Below, piece by piece: positions 1,938-44,293 of a DNA stretch of 64,000 nt. Both the position numbers and the translations under genes were made by a program. The stretch covers positions 101,143-165,142 of the forward strand of contig DAIENX010000007.1 in the NCBI GenBank assembly GCA_027340875.1, given 5' to 3'. Each line of letters opens with the position of its first letter. Positions within the stretch are counted from its first letter, which is position 1. The DNA comes from Elusimicrobiota bacterium (GTDB taxonomy: Bacteria > Elusimicrobiota > Elusimicrobia > Elusimicrobiales > UBA9959). A model generated the notes under the pieces. It did not search any database. It saw nothing but the letters and a program-made list of their open reading frames with translations, and was not told the DNA's origin.

Positions 1938-2798
1938 ATGGCGAATAAAGTTCTGGCGGAAATAGGCGTGATCGGCGGTACCGGCCTGTACGCCATGCAG
2001 GAACTTAAGATCCTCCGGGAGATAAAGGTCAAAACCCCCTTCGGCGACCCCTCGGACAAGATAATCCTGGGCTCCATCTCCGGCATCAAGGTAGCCTTCC
2101 TCCCGCGCCACGGCCGCAAGCACCACCTGCTCCCGGGAGAGATAAACCAGCGCGCCAACATGTGGGCGCTCAAGTCCATAGGCGTGAAGACCATCATCTC
2201 CGCCAGCGCGGTAGGCTCGCTCAAGGAAAAGCTGGCCCCCACCCATTTCGTCTTCCCCGACCAGTTCGTCGACAGGACCAAGGGCCGCCCCTCCACCTTC
2301 TTCGGCGGCGGCATAGTCGGCCACGTGCCCATGGCCGAGCCGTTCTGCATGGGCGTCTCCGACATGATATACAAGGAAGCCGTGAAACTGGGCATCAAGG
2401 CCCACAAGGGCGGTACCTATATCTGCATGGAGGGCCCCGGCTTCTCCACCAAGGCCGAGTCCGAATTCCATCGCAAGATGGGCTACGACATCATCGGCAT
2501 GACGATGGCCACCGAGGCGAAGCTCGCCCGCGAGGCCGGCTTCCACTACGCTCCCGTCTCGCTGGTCACCGATTACGACTGCTGGAAGGAAGGCGAGGAA
2601 GTGGACCAGCACCAGGTCTCCGAGACCATGCACAAGAACATAGGCAATATCCGCCGCCTGCTGGTGAAGATACTGCCGCTGGTGGCCGAGGCCGGCTGCC
2701 GCAACGGCTGCCCGTCCTTCTCGAAGAACTCTTTGCTGACGCACCGGGAGAACTTCCCTCCGAAGACCTACAAGAAACTGAAGCTGATACTGGGATAA
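1938..2798 (+). CDS. mtnP: S-methyl-5'-thioadenosine/purine nucleoside phosphorylase
   Basis: GVIGGTG, TPFGDPS, FLPRHG, AVGSL, EGPGFSTKAES, IGMT, VTDYDCW. Confidence 0.92.
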   Translation: MANKVLAEIGVIGGTGLYAMQELKILREIKVKTPFGDPSDKIILGSISGIKVAFLPRHGRKHHLLPGEINQRANMWALKSIGVKTIISASAVGSLKEKLAPTHFVFPDQFVDRTKGRPSTFFGGGIVGHVPMAEPFCMGVSDMIYKEAVKLGIKAHKGGTYICMEGPGFSTKAESEFHRKMGYDIIGMTMATEAKLAREAGFHYAPVSLVTDYDCWKEGEEVDQHQVSETMHKNIGNIRRLLVKILPLVAEAGCRNGCPSFSKNSLLTHRENFPPKTYKKLKLILG

Positions 2799-2802
2799 GA
2801 CA

Positions 2803-3243
2803 ATGGCCAAGAAGACAGCAGGGAAAAAAGAGCGCGGGAACTGGAAGCTGCGCCTGATAGAGGCGGCCAAGTCGGCGCAGAAGAAGGCCTACTGCCCCTA
2901 TTCCCGCTACCCCGTCGGCGCGGCGGTGCTGACCGATTCCGGCAGGCTCTACACCGGCTGCAACGTGGAGAACGCCTCGTTCGGGCTGGCGATGTGCGCG
3001 GAGCGGGTGGCCATCTTCAAGGCCGTCAGCCACGGCGACAAGAAGATCAAGGCCGTCTGCGTGGCGGCCAAGTCCGCCAAGCCCTGCGGCGCCTGCCGGC
3101 AGGTGATAATAGAGTTCGCCCCCAAGGACGCGGACATAATCTACGTGGACTGGTTCCCGATGGCCAAGAAGCAGAAAGTTACCTACACCAAGGCCGGCAA
3201 ACTGCTGCCGCAGGCCTTCGACCCGTCGGAAGCGGGATTGTAA
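2803..3243 (+). CDS. cdd: Cytidine deaminase
   Basis: AYCPYSRYPVGAA, GCNVENAS, CAERVA and PCGACRQ zinc motifs. Confidence 0.95.
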   Translation: MAKKTAGKKERGNWKLRLIEAAKSAQKKAYCPYSRYPVGAAVLTDSGRLYTGCNVENASFGLAMCAERVAIFKAVSHGDKKIKAVCVAAKSAKPCGACRQVIIEFAPKDADIIYVDWFPMAKKQKVTYTKAGKLLPQAFDPSEAGL

Positions 3244-3263
3244 AATTTACTGGAGGTGCATTT

Positions 3264-3641
3264 ATGGACGTCAAGACCCTTACTAAGATCACCAAGTGGA
3301 TGGAATCCACCGACCTAGAGGAGATAACCTGGAGGAGCGGGGACGACAAGATCTCGCTGAAGCTCAACAACAACCCGGAGCACAACGCCTCGATCTCCTC
3401 GTCGATGGAGCCCGTGCTCTCCCCTTCCATAGGCATATTCCGCTTCGCCCGCCCTGGCAAGACCAACCATCTGAAGGAGGGCTCCTCCATGAAGTCCGGC
3501 CAGGAGCTCGGCGTGGTGGAGGTGGGCAAGGAATTCAAGAGCGTGCAGGCGCCCGCGAACGGCCTGCTGAAGATCATCTCGATCTCCGACGGCAAGCCGG
3601 TGGAATACGGCCAGCCGTTGTTCTTCTTCGAGCCCAAGTAA
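3264..3641 (+). CDS. accB: Biotin carboxyl carrier protein-like, atypical biotinylation motif
   Basis: GGAGG RBS; SPSIGIF, GQELGVVE and VEYGQPLF typical of AccB; upstream of accC; EVGKE replaces EAMKM. Confidence 0.8.
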   Translation: MDVKTLTKITKWMESTDLEEITWRSGDDKISLKLNNNPEHNASISSSMEPVLSPSIGIFRFARPGKTNHLKEGSSMKSGQELGVVEVGKEFKSVQAPANGLLKIISISDGKPVEYGQPLFFFEPK

Positions 3642-3692
3642 GCTACGCCCACCGCCCCGGCCCCCCCGCGGCCGGGCGCCGGGCGCCCATAC

Positions 3693-5384
3693 ATGACCTC
3701 CAAGCCATCGACAATCAAGTGTCCGAAGTGCGGCAGCCAGCCGAACATCATCACCGACACCTGCATGAACTGCGGCTCGAAGCTGGAGAAGATCTGCGGC
3801 GAGTGCGGCGCAGCCGTGGCGGTGGAGAAGAACTACTGCGACAAATGCGGCTCGCTGCTGGCCCTGCAGCCGCCGCCAAGGCCCGATGCCCCGGGAACCC
3901 CTCCGCCGCCGCCCGCTCCGGAAAAAAGGGGATTCAGCCTGGAGATGGAATCCATCCAGGACACCGTATCCGAGAGGGCGACCTCCTTCCGCCGCAAGGT
4001 GGACACCGGGCCCGCTCCGGCAGGTCCGGCCGCCCCGCCGCCGCCCGCTTCCAAACCGGCCGCCTCGGGACGCTCGTCCAAGGGAGGAGGCAGCGTGCTC
4101 AGCCCGGATTCCGCCCGCCTGATGAAACAGGCGCCTCTGCCGCGGCCGGTCAGGCCCCCCATGCTCAAGAAAGTGACCGGCGCGCTGGTCACGGTCCTGC
4201 TGCTGGGCGTGCTGAGCGCCATACTCTACATGATAGCCGCGCCGTCGCTGCCAAAGCTGCGCCTGATAATGACGGCCAAGGCCTACCTCTCCGACATCTC
4301 AGAGGGCAAGTTCGAGAAGGCCTACTCGCTGCTCTCGACCAATTCCAAGGCGGCCTGCTCGCTAGAGGAATACCTCAAGAACAGCTCCGACTACTACGCT
4401 AAGGCCCCCGCCTGGCAGTTCAAGGACGTAGAGGTCTTCGCAATGACCAGCGATTCGGCGATGATCCGCTACATGCTCAAGGAGGGGAACGGGGAGTGGA
4501 AGTACGACTTCATCTCCTTCGTGCGCGAGAACAACCGCTGGACCCGCCCCTACATCTGGGTGCTGTTCCAGCCCATAGACGACGCGCTTAAGCGCCACGA
4601 CTTTCCGCAGGCCCTGTTCCTGGCGCAGAAACTTTACCTTACCGATCCGGTGGATCCCCGCACCTCCGGCTATCTCTGCGACGCCGAGTTCTTCATGGGC
4701 CTGCACGAGAAGGCCGTGGATTCCTGTAAGCGCATGATAGACAACGCGGCCATCTACCCGGTTGGCTATACCAGCGCGGAACTGTTCCAGTACAACTCCC
4801 ATTACGCCGACAGCCTGCGCTTCCTGCAGCGCGACCGGGTGGCCCTCCAGGAGTACGACAAGCTGCTCAAATGGCCCGGCGCCACCTCCGACCAGCTCTG
4901 CCCGGTGCACCTGAACCGCGCCGATTCATTCGTCTACCTGAAGGAGTACGACCGCGCCCTCAGGGAACTGATGGACGCCTCCAGCCTCTGCACGCAGAGC
5001 CCGGCCAAGGAGTCCACGCGGACCAGGCTTTACTATATGAGCGGTTCCGCCGGCCCGGCAGCCGTGGCCTTCGCCCAAAAATCCCGCTTCCAGCCCGGCC
5101 AGCCGCCGATAGGAGAGGCGCGCAGCAAGGAGCTGGCGGATCTGAAGGCAAAGCTGGGCCCGAGGAACGCCAGGCTCCTGCCCAAGGACCAGTGGATGGC
5201 CGTGCACGTGGCGGGCCCCGAATACCGCGTCTTCCTGCGCCAGGAGGGCATCAACCTCAGGACGAAGAAGTCCGAGACGCAGACCCTTTACACTTTCCTG
5301 GTAAACCTCTGGACCGGCAGGGCGACCGTGGAGAAGGCCCCCGGCCAGGATAAGCCCGGAGAAGTATCTCCGGACGGCAAATAG
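3693..5384 (+). CDS. Double zinc-ribbon, Pro-rich linker, single-TM, TPR-like protein
   Basis: Four CxxC pairs at the N-terminus, a Pro-rich tract, one hydrophobic helix, then helical TPR-like repeats. Confidence 0.7.
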   Translation: MTSKPSTIKCPKCGSQPNIITDTCMNCGSKLEKICGECGAAVAVEKNYCDKCGSLLALQPPPRPDAPGTPPPPPAPEKRGFSLEMESIQDTVSERATSFRRKVDTGPAPAGPAAPPPPASKPAASGRSSKGGGSVLSPDSARLMKQAPLPRPVRPPMLKKVTGALVTVLLLGVLSAILYMIAAPSLPKLRLIMTAKAYLSDISEGKFEKAYSLLSTNSKAACSLEEYLKNSSDYYAKAPAWQFKDVEVFAMTSDSAMIRYMLKEGNGEWKYDFISFVRENNRWTRPYIWVLFQPIDDALKRHDFPQALFLAQKLYLTDPVDPRTSGYLCDAEFFMGLHEKAVDSCKRMIDNAAIYPVGYTSAELFQYNSHYADSLRFLQRDRVALQEYDKLLKWPGATSDQLCPVHLNRADSFVYLKEYDRALRELMDASSLCTQSPAKESTRTRLYYMSGSAGPAAVAFAQKSRFQPGQPPIGEARSKELADLKAKLGPRNARLLPKDQWMAVHVAGPEYRVFLRQEGINLRTKKSETQTLYTFLVNLWTGRATVEKAPGQDKPGEVSPDGK

Positions 5385-5401
5385 TTGATCTTGGAGGCAA
5401 T

Positions 5402-6760
5402 ATGTTCAAGAAAGTACTGATCGCCAACCGCGGCGAGATAGCGGTACGGGTGATACGCACCCTGCGCGAGATGGGCGTAAGCTCGGTGGCGGTGTACTCC
5501 GAGGCCGACCGCTCCTCCCTGCACGTCCGGCTGGCGGACGAGGCGGTCTGCATAGGCCCGGCCATAGCCAAGGAGAGCTACCTCAGCATACCGGCCATCA
5601 TCTCCGCCGCCACGGTCACCGGCGCCGACGCCATACACCCCGGCTACGGCTTCCTGTCCGAGAACGCGGACTTCTCCGCCGCCTGCCGCGACAACGGTCT
5701 CGCGTTCATCGGGCCGTCCCCCAAGTCCATACAGCAGCTGGGCCACAAGGCCGAGGCCCGCAAGGTGGCCATGAAGGCCGGCGTGCCCGTGACCCCGGGC
5801 ACCAAAGAATGCGTGGGCAGGAACTTCAAGAGCGAGGCCGAGAAGATCGGCTTCCCGCTGATGATCAAGGCAGCCGCCGGCGGCGGCGGCAAGGGCATCC
5901 GCATCGTGCGCGAGGAGTCCCAGCTGGAGAAGGAAATGACGATGGCCTCCAGCGAGGCCAAGGCCGCCTTCGGCAACGGCGAGGTCTATTTCGAGAAGTA
6001 CATCGAGCTGCCGCGCCACATAGAAGTGCAGTTCGCGCGCGACACGCACGGCCACACGCTGGCCTTCCCGGAGCGCGACTGCTCCATACAGCGCCGTCAT
6101 CAGAAGCTGGTGGAGGAATCCCCCTCGCCTGCGGTGGACAAGAAACTGCGCGAGAAGCTGGAGGAGGCCGCCGTTAAGCTGGCCAACGCCGCCAACTACG
6201 TGGGCGTGGGCACCGTGGAATTCCTGCTGACGCAGACCGGCGAGTTCTATTTCATGGAGGTCAACACGCGCCTGCAGGTCGAGCACCCGGTCACCGAGTT
6301 CATCACCGGCTTCGACCTGGTGCGCGAGCAGCTGCTGGCCGCCTCCGGGGAGAGCCTCTCCTACACGGCCTCCCACAGCGTGCCGTACCGCGGCCACGCG
6401 ATAGAGCACCGCGTCAACGCCGAGGATTTCTCCAGGAACTTCCTGCCGTCCGTGGGCCGGGTAGAGGAGTGGCTCGTCCCCGGCGGCCCCGGCATACGGG
6501 TGGACACGCACGTCTATTCCGGCTACAACCTCCCTATCTATTACGACAGCATGCTGGCCAAACTGATAGTCTGGGACCAGACCCGCGAGCTGGCGGTCGC
6601 CAGGTCGGCCAGGGCCCTGAGGGACTTCAAGGTCTCCGGCATAAAGACCACGATAGACGCCCACCGCCTGATAGTGCAGAGCGAGGGCTTCAAGACCGGC
6701 AAGACCGACACCGGCTTCATGGAACGCCTGCTCGCTCCCGCGGAGGCCGCCGGCAAGTAG
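5402..6760 (+). CDS. accC: Acetyl-CoA carboxylase biotin carboxylase subunit
   Basis: KVLIANRGEIA, IHPGYGFLSEN, GGGGKG, ERDCSIQRRHQK, FMEVNTRLQVEHPVTE. Confidence 0.97.
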   Translation: MFKKVLIANRGEIAVRVIRTLREMGVSSVAVYSEADRSSLHVRLADEAVCIGPAIAKESYLSIPAIISAATVTGADAIHPGYGFLSENADFSAACRDNGLAFIGPSPKSIQQLGHKAEARKVAMKAGVPVTPGTKECVGRNFKSEAEKIGFPLMIKAAAGGGGKGIRIVREESQLEKEMTMASSEAKAAFGNGEVYFEKYIELPRHIEVQFARDTHGHTLAFPERDCSIQRRHQKLVEESPSPAVDKKLREKLEEAAVKLANAANYVGVGTVEFLLTQTGEFYFMEVNTRLQVEHPVTEFITGFDLVREQLLAASGESLSYTASHSVPYRGHAIEHRVNAEDFSRNFLPSVGRVEEWLVPGGPGIRVDTHVYSGYNLPIYYDSMLAKLIVWDQTRELAVARSARALRDFKVSGIKTTIDAHRLIVQSEGFKTGKTDTGFMERLLAPAEAAGK

Positions 6761-7228
6761 ATGCGCACCACCGGCAAAATAGTCCCTCTCAAGAAGGCGC
6801 TGGCACTGCGGGCCGCGCTCAGGAAGGCGGGCAGGATGGCGGTCTTCACCAACGGCTGCTTCGACCTGCTGCACGCCGGACATATCTATTCTATCGAAAA
6901 GGCCCGCTCTTTCGGGGATTTCCTCTTCCTCGGCCTCAATTCCGACGCTTCGGTGCGCCGCCTCAAGGGCCCCGCCCGTCCGATCAATAAGGCGCGGGAC
7001 AGGGCTCTGGTGCTGGCCGCCCTGCAGGCCGTGGACGCCGTGGTCGTATTCGGAGAAGATACCCCCCTGAAGCTGATAAAAGCCCTCAGGCCTGACGTGC
7101 TGGTAAAAGGCGCGGATTATACCAACGGTACCGTCGTGGGAGCCGAGTATGCCGGCATGGTAAGGCTGGTACCCCTGCTGAAGGGACGCTCGACCACCGC
7201 GCTGGCCAGGAAACTCTGCCGCTCCTGA
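6761..7228 (+). CDS. rfaE2: D-glycero-beta-D-manno-heptose 1-phosphate adenylyltransferase (RfaE domain II)
   Basis: FTNGCFDLLHAGH, GLNSDASVRRLKG, VLVKGADY, STT. Confidence 0.92.
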   Translation: MRTTGKIVPLKKALALRAALRKAGRMAVFTNGCFDLLHAGHIYSIEKARSFGDFLFLGLNSDASVRRLKGPARPINKARDRALVLAALQAVDAVVVFGEDTPLKLIKALRPDVLVKGADYTNGTVVGAEYAGMVRLVPLLKGRSTTALARKLCRS

Positions 7229-7270
7229 CCCCCATTTTTTCCCCTAAAGCTCCCCCCAATTTAATAAAAT

Positions 7271-8494
7271 ATGACGATATTACCTATGACCGACATTTTC
7301 GACAAGTGCCGCAGCTTCACCATCGCCCGCCAGCTCATCGAGTCGGGCATCTACCCCTATTTCAAGGAACTCGAGTCCGAACAGGCCCCGGAAGTGACCA
7401 TACAGGGCAAGAAGTTCATCATGTTCGGCTCCAACAACTACCTGGGTCTCGCGAACGACCCCCGCATGAAGCAGGCCGCCATAGACGCGGTCAAGAAGTA
7501 CGGGACCGGCGTGGCCGGCTCGCGCTTCCTGAACGGCAACACCGTGCTGCACACGGACCTGGAAAAGAAGCTGGCCGCCTTCAAAGGCCGCGAGGCCGCC
7601 CTGATCTACGCCACCGGCTACCAGATGAACCTGGGCGTGGTCAGCGCCCTGGTCGGCAAGGGAGATTTCGCGGTGGTCGACAAGCTTGACCACGCCAGCA
7701 TCCTGGACGGCTGCCGCCTGTCGCACGGCGAGGTGCGCCGCTTCAAGCACAACAATCCCGCCGACCTGGACCGCGTCCTGAAGGACATCGGCCCCGGCCA
7801 CGGCAAGCTGGTCATAGTGGACGGCGTCTTCTCTATGGAAGGCGACATCTCCCCCGTCCCGGAGATCTCCAAGGTCTGCAAGAAGCACGGCGCGCGCCTG
7901 ATGGTGGACGACGCGCACGCCACCGGCGTGCTCGGCAAGCACGGCCACGGCACTATGGAGCATTTCGGCCTCACCAGCAAGGACGTGGACCTGGTGGTAG
8001 GCACCTGCTCGAAGTCCTTCGCCTCGGTAGGCGGCTTCGTGGTGGGCGACGAGGACATCATCCACTACATCCAGCACGTTTCCCGCTCGATGATCTTCTC
8101 GGCGGCCCTGCCGCCCTCCTCGGTGGCCTCCATCGCAAAGGCCATAGACATCATCCAGGAAGAACCCCAGCGCATCAGAAAGCTCTGGGACAACTCCGCC
8201 TACCTGATGAAGCGCTTCAAGGCCCTCGGCCTCAACACCGGCGAGACCGCCACCCCGATCATCCCGGTCATCATCGGCGACAACGAGAAGACCTTCATGC
8301 TTTGGCGCATGCTCTACGACAACGGCCTGTTCACCAACCCGGTGGTCAGCCCGGCCGTGCCCCCAAAGCGGTCGCTCTTGCGCGTAGTGGTCACGGCCAC
8401 ACATACCCGTGAGCAGCTGGACAACGCGCTGGACATCTTCGAAGGCTGCGTCAGGAAGGTCATAAAGACCAGGCCTGCCCACGCGGCCAAATAG
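7271..8494 (+). CDS. spt: PLP-dependent alpha-oxoamine synthase, probable serine palmitoyltransferase (start may be 7286)
   Basis: GIYPYF N-terminus, FGSNNYLGL, GSRFLNG, DHASI, DGVFSMEGD, DDAH, GTCSKS (PLP Lys); resembles Bacteroides-type SPT; next to a CerS-like GNAT. Confidence 0.75.
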   Translation: MTILPMTDIFDKCRSFTIARQLIESGIYPYFKELESEQAPEVTIQGKKFIMFGSNNYLGLANDPRMKQAAIDAVKKYGTGVAGSRFLNGNTVLHTDLEKKLAAFKGREAALIYATGYQMNLGVVSALVGKGDFAVVDKLDHASILDGCRLSHGEVRRFKHNNPADLDRVLKDIGPGHGKLVIVDGVFSMEGDISPVPEISKVCKKHGARLMVDDAHATGVLGKHGHGTMEHFGLTSKDVDLVVGTCSKSFASVGGFVVGDEDIIHYIQHVSRSMIFSAALPPSSVASIAKAIDIIQEEPQRIRKLWDNSAYLMKRFKALGLNTGETATPIIPVIIGDNEKTFMLWRMLYDNGLFTNPVVSPAVPPKRSLLRVVVTATHTREQLDNALDIFEGCVRKVIKTRPAHAAK

Positions 8495-8506
8495 ACGGGC
8501 CCAGCC

Positions 8507-9619
8507 ATGCCCGCCGAAATAAGGGAAATACCCGAGAGCGACCTCGGCCTGTTCGTAGACTACCCGTATAACCTGTTCAGGGACAACCCTTTCTGGGCCG
8601 CCGACCTCAAAAAGGACGTCGCGCACCTGCTGCATACCGGCCACCCCTTCTGGCGGCACGGCGAACGCAAGATGTTCATGGCCTGCAGGGACGGCCGCCC
8701 GGTCGGGCGCATAGCCGCCATAGTCAACCACGCCTACAACAATTTCCACGGCGACCGCACCGGCTTCTTCGGCTTCTTCGACTGCGAGGACGACAAGGAG
8801 GCCGCGGCGCAGCTGTTCTCGGCCGCCGGGGCCTGGCTTAAGGCCCGCGGCATGGACTGCTCGATAGGACCGGTCAATCCCTCAACCAACGAGACCTGCG
8901 GCATGCTCTCGGAAGGCTTCGACTTCCCCCCCGTGGTCATGATGCCGTACAATCCGCCTTATTACCTCGCGCTGGCCGAGACGGCCGGCTACGGCAAGGC
9001 CAAGGACCTCTACGCCTACAATTACGAGACGGCCAACGGGTTCCCGGAGCGCTTCGACAAGATACTGTCACGCATGACCCGGGACGGCAAGGTCACCGTC
9101 CATTTCGCCGACGTCAAGGACATCAACGGGGCGCTGGGCGAGGTCAAGGACGTCTACAACTCGGCCTGGGAGAAGAACTGGGGCTTCGTGCCGATGACCG
9201 ACGAGGAACTCGACGACATGGCGGCGGCCTTCAAGCCGGTGCTGAAGCCGGAATACCTCTTCTTCGCGCGCTACGAGGGCAAGCCCGCCGCCTTCTGCCT
9301 GATGCTGCCCGACTTCAACATAGCCCTGAAGCCGGTCCGCGGCTCCCTCAATCCGCTCAACATACTGCCCTTCCTCTACCGGTTCACCTACAAGCTCGAC
9401 CGCGGCCGCATGCTCACCCTGGGGGTAAAGAAGGAATTCCGGGGAAAGGGCATAGAGCTGCTGCTGATAAAACAGGCCCTCCTCTCGGCCAAAAAGCTGG
9501 GCTGGAAGTCCGCCGAACTCTCCTGGACGCTCGAGAACAACGAGCTTATCAACAACACCATCGAAGCTATAGGCGGCAAACTCTACCGCAAGTACCGCAT
9601 CTACCGCAAGGACCTGTAA
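8507..9619 (+). CDS. GNAT-fold acyltransferase, bacterial ceramide synthase/YghO-like
   Basis: GRIAA, GFFGFFDCED, GPVNPSTNETCG, MMPYNPPYY, AWEKNWGFVP, LGVKKEFR, ELSWTLENN. Confidence 0.75.
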   Translation: MPAEIREIPESDLGLFVDYPYNLFRDNPFWAADLKKDVAHLLHTGHPFWRHGERKMFMACRDGRPVGRIAAIVNHAYNNFHGDRTGFFGFFDCEDDKEAAAQLFSAAGAWLKARGMDCSIGPVNPSTNETCGMLSEGFDFPPVVMMPYNPPYYLALAETAGYGKAKDLYAYNYETANGFPERFDKILSRMTRDGKVTVHFADVKDINGALGEVKDVYNSAWEKNWGFVPMTDEELDDMAAAFKPVLKPEYLFFARYEGKPAAFCLMLPDFNIALKPVRGSLNPLNILPFLYRFTYKLDRGRMLTLGVKKEFRGKGIELLLIKQALLSAKKLGWKSAELSWTLENNELINNTIEAIGGKLYRKYRIYRKDL

Positions 9620-9695
9620 GGGCTGCCCGGCCAGGGGGGCGCGGGTTTAATCATTTTGTAATCATTTCTTAACCACCGCGGGGTATAATAATACC

Positions 9696-10907
9696 ATGCG
9701 TTTTTCCGATCTGAAGAAGCTGAAGGAGGAGTCGGCGACGCCCAGAGCGAGGAAGCTGCCACCCCCTCCGCCGCCGCCCGCCGAAGAAAGGACGGCCTTC
9801 GAGGCGCGCTGCGAGGAACACGCCGAGCCCCCCGAACCGGCACCGGCCGCTCCGGAGAAGCCGCCGGCCCGCGAAGCCGCGCCGCCGGAACCGGCGAAAC
9901 CGCCGGAGCGCCCCACGTCGCAGGAGAAGAAGGCCGGAAAGAAGCCGTACCGCGAGCTGGAGGCCGAGGCCAGGGAGGCGTATTCGCGCCTGCTGCGCCA
10001 GGCCGCCCAGTACCTGAAAGCTTCGGACGAAGAATATACCGAGAAGTACGAATCCATCATCGCGCTGGCTTCCGCGACCGTCAACGCGCTGAGGGAGAAC
10101 CCGGTCCTGCTGGGGCTGACGGCCTACTCCACCGCGGACGACTACCTGCGCGGACATACCGCCAACACCTTCGTGCTCTCCCTGGCGATGGGCATGGAGG
10201 CCGGTCTCGACCAGCAGGAGCTGGGCCTGCTCGGCTTCTGCGCCATGGCCCACGACGCCGGGATGACCAGCTTCTCCGCCCTTTACAACACCCCGGGCCG
10301 GCTGGGAGAGCCGGAACTCGCGGAAATGACGCTGCACGCCGAGGCCGGAGCCGCGAAGCTGGACCGGATAGTGGACCTGGACTACAAGGTCAAGGACCGG
10401 GCCCGCCGCATAGTGCTGCAGGTCCACGAGCGCAGCGACGGATCCGGCTACCCGGACAGGCTTTCCAGCGAGGAGATAGACCCGCTGGCCCAGATCATAG
10501 GAATAGCCGACGCCTACGAGGCAATGTCCCATCAGCGGCCGTGGCGGGACGCGCTCCCGCCGCATGAGGCGGTCAGGGAGCTCATCGAGAAGGAAGGCCG
10601 CGGTTTCAACGCCAGGCCGGTCAAGCTGCTGCTGGCCTGCCTGTCGATGTATCCCCCCGGCTCTCTCATAGTCCTCTCCACCGGCGAGACGGCCCGCGTA
10701 CTGATGCCCAACCGCGGCCTGCTGACCAAACCGCTGGTGGAGATACTGCTGCGCCAGGACCTGACTCCGGCCGAAGGCCAGCTGGCCGACCTGAAGGAGC
10801 ACCCGCTGGTCTCGATAGAACATCCTATCACTCCGTCCGAACTGAAGGGGCGCAACCAGAAATGCGCGGCCAAGGCGGAACTCGCGCGTTGGTGGGTGGA
10901 CTGGTAG
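9696..10907 (+). CDS. HD-GYP domain protein (c-di-GMP phosphodiesterase family) with Pro-rich N-terminus
   Basis: HDAG, HERSDGSGYP, IADAYEAM, YPPGS C-terminal domain. Confidence 0.88.
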   Translation: MRFSDLKKLKEESATPRARKLPPPPPPPAEERTAFEARCEEHAEPPEPAPAAPEKPPAREAAPPEPAKPPERPTSQEKKAGKKPYRELEAEAREAYSRLLRQAAQYLKASDEEYTEKYESIIALASATVNALRENPVLLGLTAYSTADDYLRGHTANTFVLSLAMGMEAGLDQQELGLLGFCAMAHDAGMTSFSALYNTPGRLGEPELAEMTLHAEAGAAKLDRIVDLDYKVKDRARRIVLQVHERSDGSGYPDRLSSEEIDPLAQIIGIADAYEAMSHQRPWRDALPPHEAVRELIEKEGRGFNARPVKLLLACLSMYPPGSLIVLSTGETARVLMPNRGLLTKPLVEILLRQDLTPAEGQLADLKEHPLVSIEHPITPSELKGRNQKCAAKAELARWWVDW

Positions 10908-10914
10908 GCGGACC

Positions 10915-11322
10915 ATGCAGAAGAGACAGCTGCTGCTGATAGAGGACGAAGGCTACGTGATCTCCCGCATACAGGAGATCCTCTCCGCTTTCCCCTACAT
11001 CGAGGTCACGCGCACCGACGACGCCGAGCGGGCCCGCGCGCTGCTCGACGAAAAGCCTTTCGACGTGGTCATCGCCGACGTATATCTGCGCGGCGCCTCC
11101 GGGCTGGAGTTCTCGTTCAAGGCCCTGCAGAAGAACAAGGACGTCTGCGTCATACTGATAACCGGCATAGACAACGCCGACATGGCCGCCAAGGCCGTCA
11201 AGGAAGGAGCTTTCGATTTCGTGATAAAGCCGCCCGGGCTGGAGCGGCTGGCCAGCATGCTCAGGATGCTGGAGCTGGTGAAAGGACTAAGACCGCCGGA
11301 GGACGGCGGCCAGCAGCCCTAG
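10915..11322 (+). CDS. Single-domain response regulator
   Basis: LLIEDE, phosphoacceptor ADVYL, ILITG, FVIKP. Confidence 0.88.
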   Translation: MQKRQLLLIEDEGYVISRIQEILSAFPYIEVTRTDDAERARALLDEKPFDVVIADVYLRGASGLEFSFKALQKNKDVCVILITGIDNADMAAKAVKEGAFDFVIKPPGLERLASMLRMLELVKGLRPPEDGGQQP

Positions 11323-12138
11323 GAAGCGCCTGGCGTAGCTGAAAGCGGAGGCGGAACCGTAGCGGCGCTCCATGAAGCGCCTGTCCGGCACGGCGTACCG
11401 CGCCAGCAGGGACGGGCGCAGCAGCACCGGCAGCAGGTATTCCAGAGCACGAGAACGCCGCAGGGCGGCCCTTTCGAAGAGGGCCGCTTTTATCTTTTCC
11501 GCGCCTCTGGGCCGCAGCTCCTCCAGGGCCCGCTCCGGCACCCGGCACGGCCCCGCGGCCAGACGTCTTACCGCCGGCCATACCGCCGGGCGTATGCCGT
11601 AGAGGTTGGACTTGCGCGAGACCCCGGCCCAGAACTTTTCCCCGTCCCCCGGAGCGCTCATTGCCAGCCGGGCGCAGTCCTCTATGGCGCGCGCGGTGAG
11701 TTCGCCGTGATGCAGCAGCGGATGGACGGCGGCGTGCAGGAAGAGGTCCTCCCTGTTCAGGGCCAGCCCCCCGGGGCCAGGCTCCAGGCCCCAGCTGAAA
11801 AGGCCATCCGTGTCCCTGATATGCCAGAGGCCGGTATGCACGTCTATGACGGCGGGCGGAGCCTCTCCGGCCGAAGGACGGACCCAGGCGTCGGCGCTGT
11901 TGGGCATTGGCCGGTAGCCAAGCTCCCTGAGCGCGCCCTCGAAAGCCTCCAGGTCCGCCGGCCTGACCAGGACGTCAGCGTCCGTCATGCCGCGCTCGCC
12001 CGGCTGGTAGAGCCCCAGCTCCAGCAGCGCCGCGCCTTTCAGCGCGGCCACCTCCACTCCGGCTTTGGCGGCGGCGTCGCGGGCCTCCTCGAAGGCCCCG
12101 AGCAGCAGTATGTCCCTGGCAGCCGAAGTCCGGTCCAT
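11287..12138 (-). CDS. Nucleotidyltransferase family protein (NTP_transf_5-like)
   Basis: LKGAAL, R-x-M-x-DADVLV and IDVH motifs. Confidence 0.8.
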   Translation of the reverse strand: MDRTSAARDILLLGAFEEARDAAAKAGVEVAALKGAALLELGLYQPGERGMTDADVLVRPADLEAFEGALRELGYRPMPNSADAWVRPSAGEAPPAVIDVHTGLWHIRDTDGLFSWGLEPGPGGLALNREDLFLHAAVHPLLHHGELTARAIEDCARLAMSAPGDGEKFWAGVSRKSNLYGIRPAVWPAVRRLAAGPCRVPERALEELRPRGAEKIKAALFERAALRRSRALEYLLPVLLRPSLLARYAVPDRRFMERRYGSASAFSYARRFLGLLAAVLRRS

Positions 12139-12141
12139 CGC

Positions 12142-12459
12142 CTAATCCCAGCGTTCCTTCTTCTCTCCCGTAGGGTGCACCTCGGTAACGGAGTCGAACT
12201 TCACGCCGTAGACTCGGCGGCCCTTGTCCTGCCGCGTCCAGACCACCTCGCCGTGGGCCTCGAGCGCGCCCCGGCCCAGCAGGCGCAGCCTGGCCCTGAG
12301 CTTCTCCCCCTTCCGGAACTCCCTGTCGGAGGAGAAGGCTATGCCGCTGGCCGAGACGTCGGAAAGACGCCCGGTGGCCGTAAGGCGGCCGTCCTCGTCC
12401 AGAAGCTCCACGACCGAATCGTGCCTGTTCCTCTCCGCCCGTCTCTGTTCCCTGCCCAT
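12142..12459 (-). CDS. PilZ domain protein
   Basis: AGGAGG RBS; EQRRAER (RxxxR) and DVSASG (DxSxxG); GEVVW..YGVKF. Confidence 0.9.
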   Translation of the reverse strand: MGREQRRAERNRHDSVVELLDEDGRLTATGRLSDVSASGIAFSSDREFRKGEKLRARLRLLGRGALEAHGEVVWTRQDKGRRVYGVKFDSVTEVHPTGEKKERWD

Positions 12460-12588
12460 GCTTCCTCCTGTCCCAGACCCCGCTCCCATTCTATAATATG
12501 TCGGCCGGCGCGGCGCAGGTCCCGTTATTTTTATAATATAATACAAGTGGGCGCAAGGCGCTCTATCTTGGGGATCCGGGGACGTTTT

Positions 12589-12939
12589 ATGAAGATACTG
12601 GTCGTTGACGACAATCTCTTGACCAGGAGCATGATCAGGGACCTGCTCAGCGAGATGGGCCACGAGGTGGTAGGGGAGGCCGAGAACGGCGATGAGGCCA
12701 TACGGCTGTTCCGCGAGCTCGAGCCGGATCTGACGCTGCTCGACATGATCATGCCCGGCAAGACGGGCCTGGAGACGCTGCAGGAGATAAAGGCGATGGA
12801 CCAGGCTGCCCGGGTGATAATGGTAACGGCCGTGCAGCAGGAATCTCTCAGCACTCAATTACTGACTGCCGGCGCCGCCGCCGTGCTGCACAAGCCGTTC
12901 ATGTACGGCGACCTCGAGGAAGTGCTTAAGACGCTCTGA
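12589..12939 (+). CDS. CheY-like response regulator
   Basis: KILVVDD, VVGEAENG, LDMIMP, IMVTA, HKPF. Confidence 0.9.
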   Translation: MKILVVDDNLLTRSMIRDLLSEMGHEVVGEAENGDEAIRLFRELEPDLTLLDMIMPGKTGLETLQEIKAMDQAARVIMVTAVQQESLSTQLLTAGAAAVLHKPFMYGDLEEVLKTL

Positions 12940-42704: not shown

Positions 42705-43697
42705 ATGCGTATCCTTATATTAGGAGGCACCCGCTTCTTCGGAAGGGAAACGGCGATACGCCTGCAGAAAGCCGGCCACGAGGTAACGGTGTTCTCCCGC
42801 CGCGTCCCGGTGGACGGCCTGCCGCTGGACATACGCCAGGCCAGGGGGGACCGCGCGGTGGAGATAGACCTCAACCGCATGGCCGTGGAGCCCTGGGACG
42901 CCATAATAGACAACATCTGCTACAGCGGCGAGGACGCGCAAAAGGCCGTAAAGGTATTCAGCGGGAGGACCGGCATATACCTGTTCACCTCCTCAGCCTC
43001 GGTATACCCGATCTTCGAGGGAGCGGTTTCGCCGTACCGCGAGAACCTGACGGACCTGCTGCGCCTGAAGGAACCGCTCAAGGAGAAATACGCCTACGGC
43101 CTCGGCAAGCTCGCCGCCGAAAGGGAGTTCCTGAAGGCTTTCGCCGAGAAGAAGTTCCCGGCCGTCGTGGTCCGGCCGCCAATAGTCATCGGCCCGGGAG
43201 ACCCGACGCTCCGGGCCTATTCCTACTGGCTGCGGCTGGCCGACGGCGGGCCGCTGCTGCTGCCCGGCTCCTATTTCCGCAGCCGCTACGTGTTCTCCCG
43301 GGACCTGGCCGGGGCCATAGAGACGCTGATCGGTTCCGCCGGGCATTGCGGCAGGGTCTTCAACATCGCCGGAGCGGAACAGCTGACGCTGGAGGATTTC
43401 GCCAGGATCTCCGCCCGGATAATGCATAAGGACGCGGAGCTGCTCTGCCCGGACCACGCCTGGCTGAAGGAGCGGGGCTTCGACTTCTCGGCCTCGCCGT
43501 TCTCTTCGGGCGGGGACTTCGTGCAGGACATCTCGCTGGCCGAAAAGGAGCTGGGCTGGAGCCCGACTCCGGCGGCGGAGTGGATAGAGGAAACGATACA
43601 CTGGCAGCTGTTCAGCTACACCGGCCCGGCGCCGAAGAACTACGCCGGCCGCAAGCGGGAGCTGGAACTGGCCGCTGAATGGAAGGCAAGGACATGA
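42705..43697 (+). CDS. NAD-dependent epimerase/dehydratase family protein
   Basis: ILILGGTRFFG, TSSASVY, YGLGK (YxxxK), VVRPP. Confidence 0.88.
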   Translation: MRILILGGTRFFGRETAIRLQKAGHEVTVFSRRVPVDGLPLDIRQARGDRAVEIDLNRMAVEPWDAIIDNICYSGEDAQKAVKVFSGRTGIYLFTSSASVYPIFEGAVSPYRENLTDLLRLKEPLKEKYAYGLGKLAAEREFLKAFAEKKFPAVVVRPPIVIGPGDPTLRAYSYWLRLADGGPLLLPGSYFRSRYVFSRDLAGAIETLIGSAGHCGRVFNIAGAEQLTLEDFARISARIMHKDAELLCPDHAWLKERGFDFSASPFSSGGDFVQDISLAEKELGWSPTPAAEWIEETIHWQLFSYTGPAPKNYAGRKRELELAAEWKART

Positions 43698-44293
43698 CCA
43701 CCACCGAAAGAGCGGGAAAGATAAAGATATTCCTGATGGACGTGGACGGGGTGCTGACGGACGGGAAGATGTACTACGTCCCCGGCCCGCGGGGGATGAT
43801 AGAGTTCAAGGGTTTCCACTCGCTGGACGGCATAGGACTGCGCCTGCTGAACCAGTTCGGGGTGCTGACCGGCGTGATCACCGGACGCGAGTCGCCCTCC
43901 ACCGAGGAGCGCGCGGCGGGCCTCGGCATGTCCTACGCCTACCAGGGCTTCCTGTCCAAGGTGGAGCCGCTGCGGAAAATACTCGAGGATACCGGCCTCA
44001 AGCCCGAGAACGTGGCCTACATGGGGGACGATCTCACAGACCTGCCGGTGCTGCGGCTGGCGGGGCTGCCCTGCGCGCCCGCGAACGCGATACAGGAGGT
44101 GAAGAGGGCCTCCCGCCTCGTCACGAAGCGCGAAGGCGGAGCCGGCGCCGTGCGCGAAGTCTGCGATCTCATACTCAGGAGCCAGGGGCGCTGGGCGGAG
44201 GTGATGCGCTGCGTGGAGACGGCCCACTGGCCGCCGGTTCGCGGCGCCGGCCTGAAGATAGTGCGCCAGTCCGGGAAAAGGGGGAAGAAATGA
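43694..44293 (+). CDS. kdsC: KDO 8-phosphate phosphatase (HAD)
   Basis: [33 protein letters not shown]. Confidence 0.88.

Follow-up and report, generated by a model that had tools for sequence, protein, structure and literature searches.

Among the described bacterial sphingolipid systems, the Caulobacter genes CC_1165-1162 correspond, according to the pertinent sections of PMC11324152, to aasR, cerR, acpR, and spt, CC_1156 and CC_1155 to LptF2 and LptG2, and CC_1154 to the N-acyltransferase (CerS) required for dihydroceramide. In the parts of PMC11087976 that deal with enzyme localization, Spt (serine palmitoyltransferase, SPT) and the ceramide synthase bCerS are placed in the cytoplasm and the reductase CerR in the periplasm of Caulobacter, and the order condensation, N-acylation, and reduction is proposed. 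In Bacteroides fragilis the loss of cerS is described to result in accumulation of 3-ketosphinganine and the loss of cerR in keto-dihydroceramide (sections of bioRxiv 10.1101/2023.05.23.541633), and in these sources genetic evidence for the N-acyltransferase is limited to Caulobacter CC_1154 and B. fragilis BF9343_4218 (bioRxiv 10.1101/2023.05.23.541633, PMC11324152). The present study concerns two adjacent genes, whose products are designated here as P0001 (Spt-like alpha-oxoamine synthase) and P0002 (bCerS-like N-acyltransferase of the GNAT fold), in a stretch of 64,000 nucleotides from contig DAIENX010000007.1 of an Elusimicrobiota bacterium; this whole stretch is referred to below as the window.

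The Gene Pair

The pair probably codes for the enzymes of the first two steps, both cytoplasmic, of bacterial sphingolipid synthesis. This reading is carried by the observed family membership of both proteins, conserved active-site residues, linkage of the two genes in other genomes, a natural fusion of the two proteins, and purifying selection. The initial annotation of this DNA had described the two genes as lying 12 nt apart, and the coordinates were confirmed: the stop codon TAG of the P0001 gene occupies positions 8492-8494 and the ATG of the P0002 gene begins at 8507 (Table 1). The motifs quoted there are all present in the translations (GIYPYF, FGSNNYLGL, and GSRFLNG in P0001; GFFGFF, MMPYNPPYY, and NWGFVP in P0002), and the second product, announced as a GNAT protein of about 370 aa, has exactly 370 aa and a Pfam Acetyltransf_1 match.

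In comparison with the three closest loci the ratio of nonsynonymous to synonymous substitution rates (dN/dS) was 0.13–0.20 for the P0001 gene and 0.15–0.35 for the P0002 gene, that is, purifying selection acts on both. According to the Pfam matches, the numbers of homologues, and these low dN/dS values, both open reading frames (ORFs) are genuine genes rather than products of chance. The promoter/terminator scan, whose counts are at the level of shuffled sequence, found no terminator-like site in the 12-nt spacer, and for this reason co-transcription of the two genes is likely; the first strong terminator of the + strand after the pair was placed by the same scan at 11462..11490, which at this level of counts has no proof value. 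Prediction of a P0001-P0002 complex from the alignments of the two proteins gave a score of 0.00, which is uninformative on binding either way.

The Synthase

P0001 matches Pfam Aminotran_1_2 (E 7e-60), and its top NCBIfam model is NF047600 (SPT, CFB group) with 536 bits, followed by TIGR01825 (BioF/Kbl family) with 426 bits. The other SPT models scored 407.5 bits (beta-proteobacterial NF047599, cut-off 500) and 340.6 bits (proteobacterial NF047603, cut-off 670), while the BioF and Kbl models reached 402 and 371 bits; thus the resemblance to Bacteroides SPT over BioF or Kbl, which the initial annotation had noted, is supported by profile scores. Among solved structures the best match was the SPT of Sphingobacterium multivorum (424 bits), followed by a Thermus-type BioF/Kbl enzyme (299 bits) and Sphingomonas SPT (296 bits), with Kbl at about 240 and BioF at about 214 bits; the identity to E. 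coli Spt is 38%. By these comparisons P0001 is classified as an alpha-oxoamine synthase nearest to the Bacteroidota-type Spt.

The phylogeny that had been proposed as a check was built by a quick method from 64 rows, comprising P0001, 58 synthases of the surveyed loci described below, the N-terminus of the fusion protein P0160, and references, namely, E. coli and Sphingomonas Spt and E. coli K-12 BioF and Kbl, with HemA and TIGR01825-type synthases outside the set. P0001 falls into a clade of 61 rows (SH-aLRT 93) that also holds both Spt references, and BioF and Kbl, with one reference each, stand outside it on long branches, so that the synthase groups with Spt; the grouping with BioF or Kbl, by which the initial annotation would have been refuted, was not obtained with this set of references. 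The third sequence outside is an outlier from Acidobacteriota (L043:11143-12684, - strand), which lies beside a GNAT gene on the opposite strand, has a very long branch, and may be a different alpha-oxoamine synthase.

The residues around the PLP-serine adduct (PLP, pyridoxal 5'-phosphate) of S. multivorum SPT (PDB 8GUH, 3A2B), as described in the structural part of PMC10196870, were mapped to P0001 by pairwise alignment. The features of a fold-type I PLP synthase are kept, with Schiff-base lysine Lys244 corresponding to K248 and the PLP cradle His138, Asp210, and His213 to H141, D213, and H216. Further Thr241, Ser243, Asn52, Gly80-Ser81, Ser185, Ala274, and Asn117 correspond to T245, S247, N55, G83-S84, S188, A278, and N120, respectively, while two positions differ, Met271 being replaced by I275 and Phe114 by Y117. 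The environment of the serine side chain in Spt (N55, G83-S84, S247, and N120) is therefore present in P0001, and in 40 sequences (P0001 and 39 cassette-linked homologues) the serine-site residues are invariant, N120 nearly so.

The Predicted N-Acyltransferase

The general databases say less about the second protein: the Pfam match of P0002 to Acetyltransf_1 is weak (E 1.4e-6, residues 214-345), no NCBIfam model matches P0002 or E. coli YghO, the PDB sequence search gave two chance-level matches only (E 0.21 and 0.5), and ESM Atlas returned only generic GNAT cluster names. The family itself is large: at E<=1e-3 it has 7421 cluster representatives, and 1377 are left when the limit is lowered to E<=1e-30. 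The AlphaFold2 model obtained from a 35-row alignment has a mean pLDDT of 93.9, and in a Foldseek search it matched tandem-GNAT small-amine N-acyltransferases (TM 0.53–0.65, E 9e-15 to 3e-11), the matches being glucosamine N-acetyltransferase 5KF1, CBG 2WPW, MAB_4324, and MshD (1OZP). In the family alignment the C-terminal GNAT domain keeps the R312-x-x-G315 CoA loop, and little or no variation is seen at W340, L342, E343, N345, and Y363; from this conservation the residues may have catalytic roles.

The tblastn search of plasmid records with P0002 matched 43 records, including E. coli yghO and Sphingomonas parapaucimobilis. Over 369 aa, that is, at full length, P0002 has 33% identity to YghO (E 5e-68), and the identity to the Sphingomonas homologue is 32% (E 6e-66). 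A family tree of 86 rows places YghO and the homologues from Roseomonas and Sphingomonas within the rest of the family, and none of the three has a long branch. The legend of Figure 9 in PMC9386255 lists “aca: CC_1154, yghO ECD_02850, Swit_3908 ...”, which puts YghO beside the Caulobacter enzyme. In the Sphingomonas record the order is NAD(P)H-binding protein, acyl carrier protein (ACP), alpha-oxoamine synthase, ATP-binding protein, lptF, lptG, desaturase, and the P0002 homologue, and this position after lptF-lptG is the same layout as that of Caulobacter CC_1154 after LptF2/LptG2 in the account of PMC11324152. On the basis of identity to YghO, the joint listing of YghO and CC_1154, synteny, and the family tree, P0002 is assigned to the YghO/CC_1154 family, called cerS or bCerS in the literature, and the earlier description of the second protein as bCerS-like is retained.

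Conservation of the Pair across Phyla

The linkage of the two genes was surveyed by scanning one genome per species with the P0002 family alignment, and the best 80 of at least 600 stretches were taken as loci. By tblastn with P0001 a synthase was detected in the flanks of 59 of the 80 loci, lying upstream on the same strand in 47, downstream on the same strand in 10, and on the other strand in 2; 21 loci are without synthase, two of them too short to judge. In 53 of the 80 loci synthase and GNAT are directly adjacent on the same strand, their alignments ending at most 189 nt apart, and the synthase-linked loci span 13 named phyla. The synthase-GNAT pair is a conserved cassette.

When all ORFs within 7 kb were clustered, two further conserved neighbours emerged. 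The first is a CerR-type protein of about 325 aa (Pfam Epimerase/3Beta_HSD), present in 44 of the 80 loci (46 by tblastn) and matching the genes at the CerR position of E. coli and Sphingomonas with E ~1e-41. Synthase-GNAT-reductase triads are found on the Rubrobacter and Streptomyces plasmids. The second, occurring in 29 of the 80 loci (for example, L036:11192-12091 on the - strand and L064:9077-9934 on the + strand), is a PAP2_3/PAP2_C membrane protein of about 300 aa, which gave one weak match to the phosphoinositol dihydroceramide synthase model (26 bits) and is a candidate ceramide head-group transferase. Three loci labelled Akkermansia muciniphila, Bifidobacterium, and Verrucomicrobiota (L033, L019, and L058) carry near-identical GNAT and PAP2 genes, and the flanks available for them hold no synthase. 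The label Bifidobacterium seems to result from wrong binning, since the GNAT of that contig groups closest with Verrucomicrobiota L058.

The two functions also occur in one polypeptide. P0160, a cluster representative of 780 aa from outside the window, is a natural fusion in which an Spt-like synthase (residues 57-396) is followed by a P0002-like GNAT (residues 418-779). The identity of its synthase half to P0001 is 49%, and the best model of this half is NF047600 (470 bits). The search for longer proteins gave 197 matches at E<=1e-20, the best 120 of which have 751–867 aa; PF00155 was absent from the precomputed Pfam domains of these 120, P0160 is the sole synthase fusion seen, and such fusion therefore looks rare. 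The same best 120 of 197 resemble GNAT-GNAT tandems, the named ones being from Planctomycetota (Pirellulales, Thermoguttaceae), and for P0123 this architecture was confirmed by two P0002-matching stretches with GNAT domains in both halves.

Proposed Pathway and Alternative Explanations

According to this reading P0001 would act as a PLP-dependent serine palmitoyltransferase that forms 3-ketosphinganine from L-serine and a long-chain acyl thioester. As the surroundings of the pair encode no dedicated AcpR/AasR, the acyl donor would probably be acyl-CoA or the acyl-ACP of housekeeping metabolism. P0002 would then N-acylate the amino-ketone to 3-keto-dihydroceramide, which a reductase encoded elsewhere would convert to dihydroceramide. 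Substrates, order of steps, and final lipid are those that the families suggest. The PLP chemistry of alpha-oxoamine synthases requires a free amine, and the GNAT must therefore act after the synthase. Such an order fits the Caulobacter proposal and the B. fragilis knockouts as these are presented in the relevant sections of PMC11087976 and bioRxiv 10.1101/2023.05.23.541633, and the adjacency of Spt and bCerS together with the natural fusion supports the published view that N-acylation follows directly after condensation.

Several points weigh against the proposed pathway. The score of P0001 with NF047600 misses the curated SPT equivalog cut-off (536 versus 640 bits), which would be expected for another phylum, the SPT models being built on the CFB group and Proteobacteria. 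The synthase tree has a single BioF and a single Kbl reference, both long-branched. The connection of P0002 with bCerS (CCNA_01212, BF9343_4218) is an indirect one through YghO, a figure legend, and synteny, and YghO itself is proposed as N-acyltransferase without assay in the part of PMC9386255 concerned. Lipid data for the Elusimicrobiota lineage were not found in the literature searched. Finally, no CerR, AcpR, AasR, or PAP2 homologue is present in the 64-kb window beyond one weak epimerase, and in the nine Elusimicrobiales loci nearest to it (L001-L006, L011, L018, and L021) CerR-like and PAP2-like genes are likewise absent from the flanks of the pair, which extend up to 10 kb.

The search for CerR and a dedicated ACP, suggested by the initial annotation, yielded neither within the window, and tblastn with AcpR of E. 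coli and Sphingomonas and AasR of E. coli gave no match there at E<=1. The only epimerase gene of the window, at 42705..43697, was examined as a possible CerR gene but not accepted. Its identity to the CerR-like proteins of the cassettes is 27% at best (E 1e-10), it reaches E 0.017 against the Rubrobacter reductase, and it adjoins kdsC; a role of its product in envelope sugar metabolism is more likely. Two other loci, L044 (Elusimicrobiota) and L007 (an unclassified metagenome-assembled genome, MAG), carry the epimerase, the synthase, and the GNAT together. Among the best 120 relatives of the L044 reductase, most of them without name, the named close ones belong to Endomicrobium, Endomicrobia, and unspecific Elusimicrobiota, and the names Elusimicrobiales, Elusimicrobiaceae, and Elusimicrobium do not occur among them. 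The absence of CerR from 64 kb is weak evidence, because the three genes are also unlinked in sphingolipid-producing Bacteroidota, as stated in the corresponding part of PMC11334938. Since neither the window nor its nine relatives have CerR or PAP2 in the vicinity of the pair, full ceramide synthesis by this organism is a prediction. Of the earlier statement that the organism makes ceramides alongside lipopolysaccharide (LPS), the LPS part is supported by LPS genes in the window, whereas the ceramide part, with no CerR in 64 kb, has the strength of that prediction.

It may be speculated that Elusimicrobiales run a reductase-less two-gene pathway, in which the CerR and PAP2 partners were lost and the pair was re-wired behind the accC/heptose gene and before the HD-domain/response-regulator pair, the end product being 3-keto-dihydroceramide or its reduction being carried out by an unrelated enzyme; this scenario is improbable on present data, and still it is only from the lack of a reductase in this clade that new insight might be gained.

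The best surviving alternative is that the pair makes an N-acylated amino-ketone other than canonical ceramide, with a 1-deoxy or glycine/alanine-derived base, or with the product left as 3-keto-dihydroceramide without CerR. The lack of a CerR-like gene in the window and the nine loci and the score under the SPT equivalog cut-off fit such an outcome, and the use of alanine by Spt is discussed, with other amino acids proposed, in a section of Ding et al. study (PMC11334938). However, the serine-contacting residues are intact and invariant, the absence within 64 kb says little in view of the unlinked genes of Bacteroidota reported in the same source, and the synthase and GNAT of the clade to which the window belongs nest among CerR-carrying cassettes, so this alternative is considered to be unlikely.

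A cysteate fatty acyltransferase (CFAT), with the pair making sulfonolipid (capnine-type) bases, is rejected as very improbable. CFATs are close relatives of Spt, and Tyr117 of P0001 stands at the position of S. multivorum Phe114, where CFAT has Tyr115. On the other hand, the solved CFAT scored 245 bits against 424 bits of Spt, and the cysteate pocket, which in the structural description of PMC13692747 includes Ala82 and Lys280, is replaced in the alignment by Ser84 and Ala278 of P0001, which also keeps Asn120, a feature absent from CFAT according to that description. A housekeeping synthase of BioF/Kbl type beside an unrelated acetyltransferase, for which the second rank of TIGR01825 and the BioF score might speak, is equally rejected as very improbable, since direct same-strand adjacency in 53 of 80 loci and 13 named phyla, the natural fusion, the position of E. 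coli BioF and Kbl outside the P0001 clade, and the lack of bio or tdh genes near the pair all contradict it.

Neighbourhood and Lineage

The other features of the window that touch on the pair are collected in Table 1. The initial annotation had placed the pair directly after accB, accC, and rfaE2; accC and the rfaE2-like gene are borne out and are neighbours common to 10 loci, accC being conserved upstream of the pair in Elusimicrobiales relatives, whereas accB is separated from accC by the zinc-ribbon gene. Its mention of LPS genes was correct for KdsC, which passes its model, and for the rfaE2-like protein, which is just under the cut-off.

Table 1: Positions of the gene pair and of the features discussed in the window.
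Feature	Position	Strand	Remarks
P0001, Spt-like alpha-oxoamine synthase	7271..8494	+	ATG start, 407 aa
Spacer between P0001 and P0002 genes	8495..8506	+	12 nt
P0002, bCerS-like tandem-GNAT N-acyltransferase, YghO/CC_1154 family	8507..9619	+	ATG start, 370 aa
Biotin carboxyl carrier protein (BCCP)/accB-like ORF	within 2994..3641	+	Upstream of pair
Zinc-ribbon protein, 563 aa	3693..5384	+	N-terminal double zinc ribbon, no other family match; kept in 6 related loci
accC, biotin carboxylase	5402..6760	+	NCBIfam 642 versus cut-off 626.5 bits
rfaE2-like heptose-1-phosphate adenylyltransferase domain protein	6761..7228	+	177.8 versus cut-off 181.5 bits; 42 nt upstream of P0001
HD-domain (HD_5) protein	9696..10907	+	76 nt downstream of P0002; kept in 5 related loci
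Response regulator	10915..11322		After HD_5 gene; kept in 5 related loci
PilZ protein	12142..12858	-	Near pair
NAD-dependent epimerase-family gene	42705..43697	+	Overlaps kdsC start
KdsC	43679..44293		TIGR01670 141.9 versus cut-off 106.95 bits

The probable Elusimicrobiota origin proposed earlier agrees with the homologues of P0002, the best of which are 90–52% identical; among the best 120 the named ones are all Elusimicrobia, Elusimicrobiota, or Elusimicrobiales, except one “bacterium”. The loci nearest to the window are L001 (unclassified MAG), L002 (Elusimicrobiaceae MAG), and L003 (Elusimicrobia MAG).

The HD-domain protein gave a weak match to a cyclic di-GMP (c-di-GMP) phosphodiesterase model, and one member of the P0002 family, P0239, is fused to an N-terminal PilZ domain. 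This fusion together with the HD_5/response regulator and PilZ neighbours of the pair is a hint at c-di-GMP control of the pathway.

Significance of the Pair

The lineage had been called unexpected, which is weaker than claimed: in the sections of Ding et al. study (PMC11334938) devoted to distribution, Spt-like proteins are reported in MAGs of 38 phyla, which brings the potential sphingolipid-producing phyla to 40, and bCerS and CerR are described as often co-located, while the cassette was found here in 13 named phyla. The pathway is thus already known and widespread in bacteria, and the Elusimicrobiota pair adds a member. The main text of the same paper does not mention Elusimicrobi*, the full-text search found no paper pairing Elusimicrobi* with serine palmitoyltransferase, and the papers listed for Elusimicrobiota and sphingolipid are microbiome surveys, as judged by title and abstract. 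If the proposed reading is true, Elusimicrobiota joins the bacteria able to build sphingolipid backbones alongside LPS. The phylum has cultured members. Provided the reading holds, the pair is a minimal two-gene cassette, easy to express and assay. According to the survey of loci, the adjacency of Spt and bCerS, often with CerR and a PAP2 gene, is a portable module in many phyla.

Comparison with Known Systems

Caulobacter crescentus (Spt CC_1162, cerS/bCerS CC_1154 = CCNA_01212, CerR CC_1164) and the window are alike in having an alpha-oxoamine synthase and a GNAT protein of the YghO/CC_1154 family. In the window the two genes are 12 nt apart, while in Rhodobacteria cerS is apparently in a transcription unit separate from spt, as the relevant part of PMC11324152 indicates, and the pair is without AcpR, AasR, CerR, and LptF2/G2 nearby; thus the dedicated AcpR and AasR beside spt, a Rhodobacteria-type feature, were not found in the window. 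P0001 itself is nearer to the Bacteroidota type, with 536 bits versus 408 and 341 bits of the proteobacterial models.

In the E. coli B-type yghO cluster (spt, acpR, epi, aasR, and yghO; ECD_02850-02854) the YghO protein shares the NWGFVP, MMP, and SW-LE-N motifs with P0002, but E. coli has a dedicated ACP, acyl-ACP synthetase, and epimerase, and yghO is divergently placed. The order in the E. coli record is lptF, lptG, and then on the other strand alpha-oxoamine synthase, ACP, epimerase, and fatty acyl-AMP ligase, followed by yghO. The E. coli PN43 record (L081) holds this published cluster at 2325..10104, and its order yghO, aasR, epi, acpR, and spt agrees with the consecutive tags ECD_02850-02854; yghO adjoins glcC there, Spt passes NF047599 (600 bits versus cut-off 500), and paralogues of lptF and lptG are present. 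The cluster also occurs in E. coli BL21 (PMC9386255).

The tandem-GNAT N-acetyltransferases (5KF1, 2WPW, and MshD 1OZP) have the two-domain fold in common with P0002 at an identity of 13–16% only, and they use acetyl-CoA and sugar or peptide amines. On the synthase side, cysteate fatty acyltransferase (CFAT/SulA, PDB 28EH) shares fold and PLP chemistry with P0001, which does not have its Ala82/Lys280 pocket. The actinobacterial triads differ from the window by the reductase as third gene, and the plasmids of Rubrobacter radiotolerans and Streptomyces sp. NBC_01001 show the same order of synthase and then GNAT, with genes overlapping or abutting and GNAT proteins 41% and 38% identical to P0002, respectively. 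The best solved relative of P0001 is S. multivorum SPT (8GUH, 3A2B), whose active-site residues are matched apart from the pairs Met271/Ile275 and Phe114/Tyr117.

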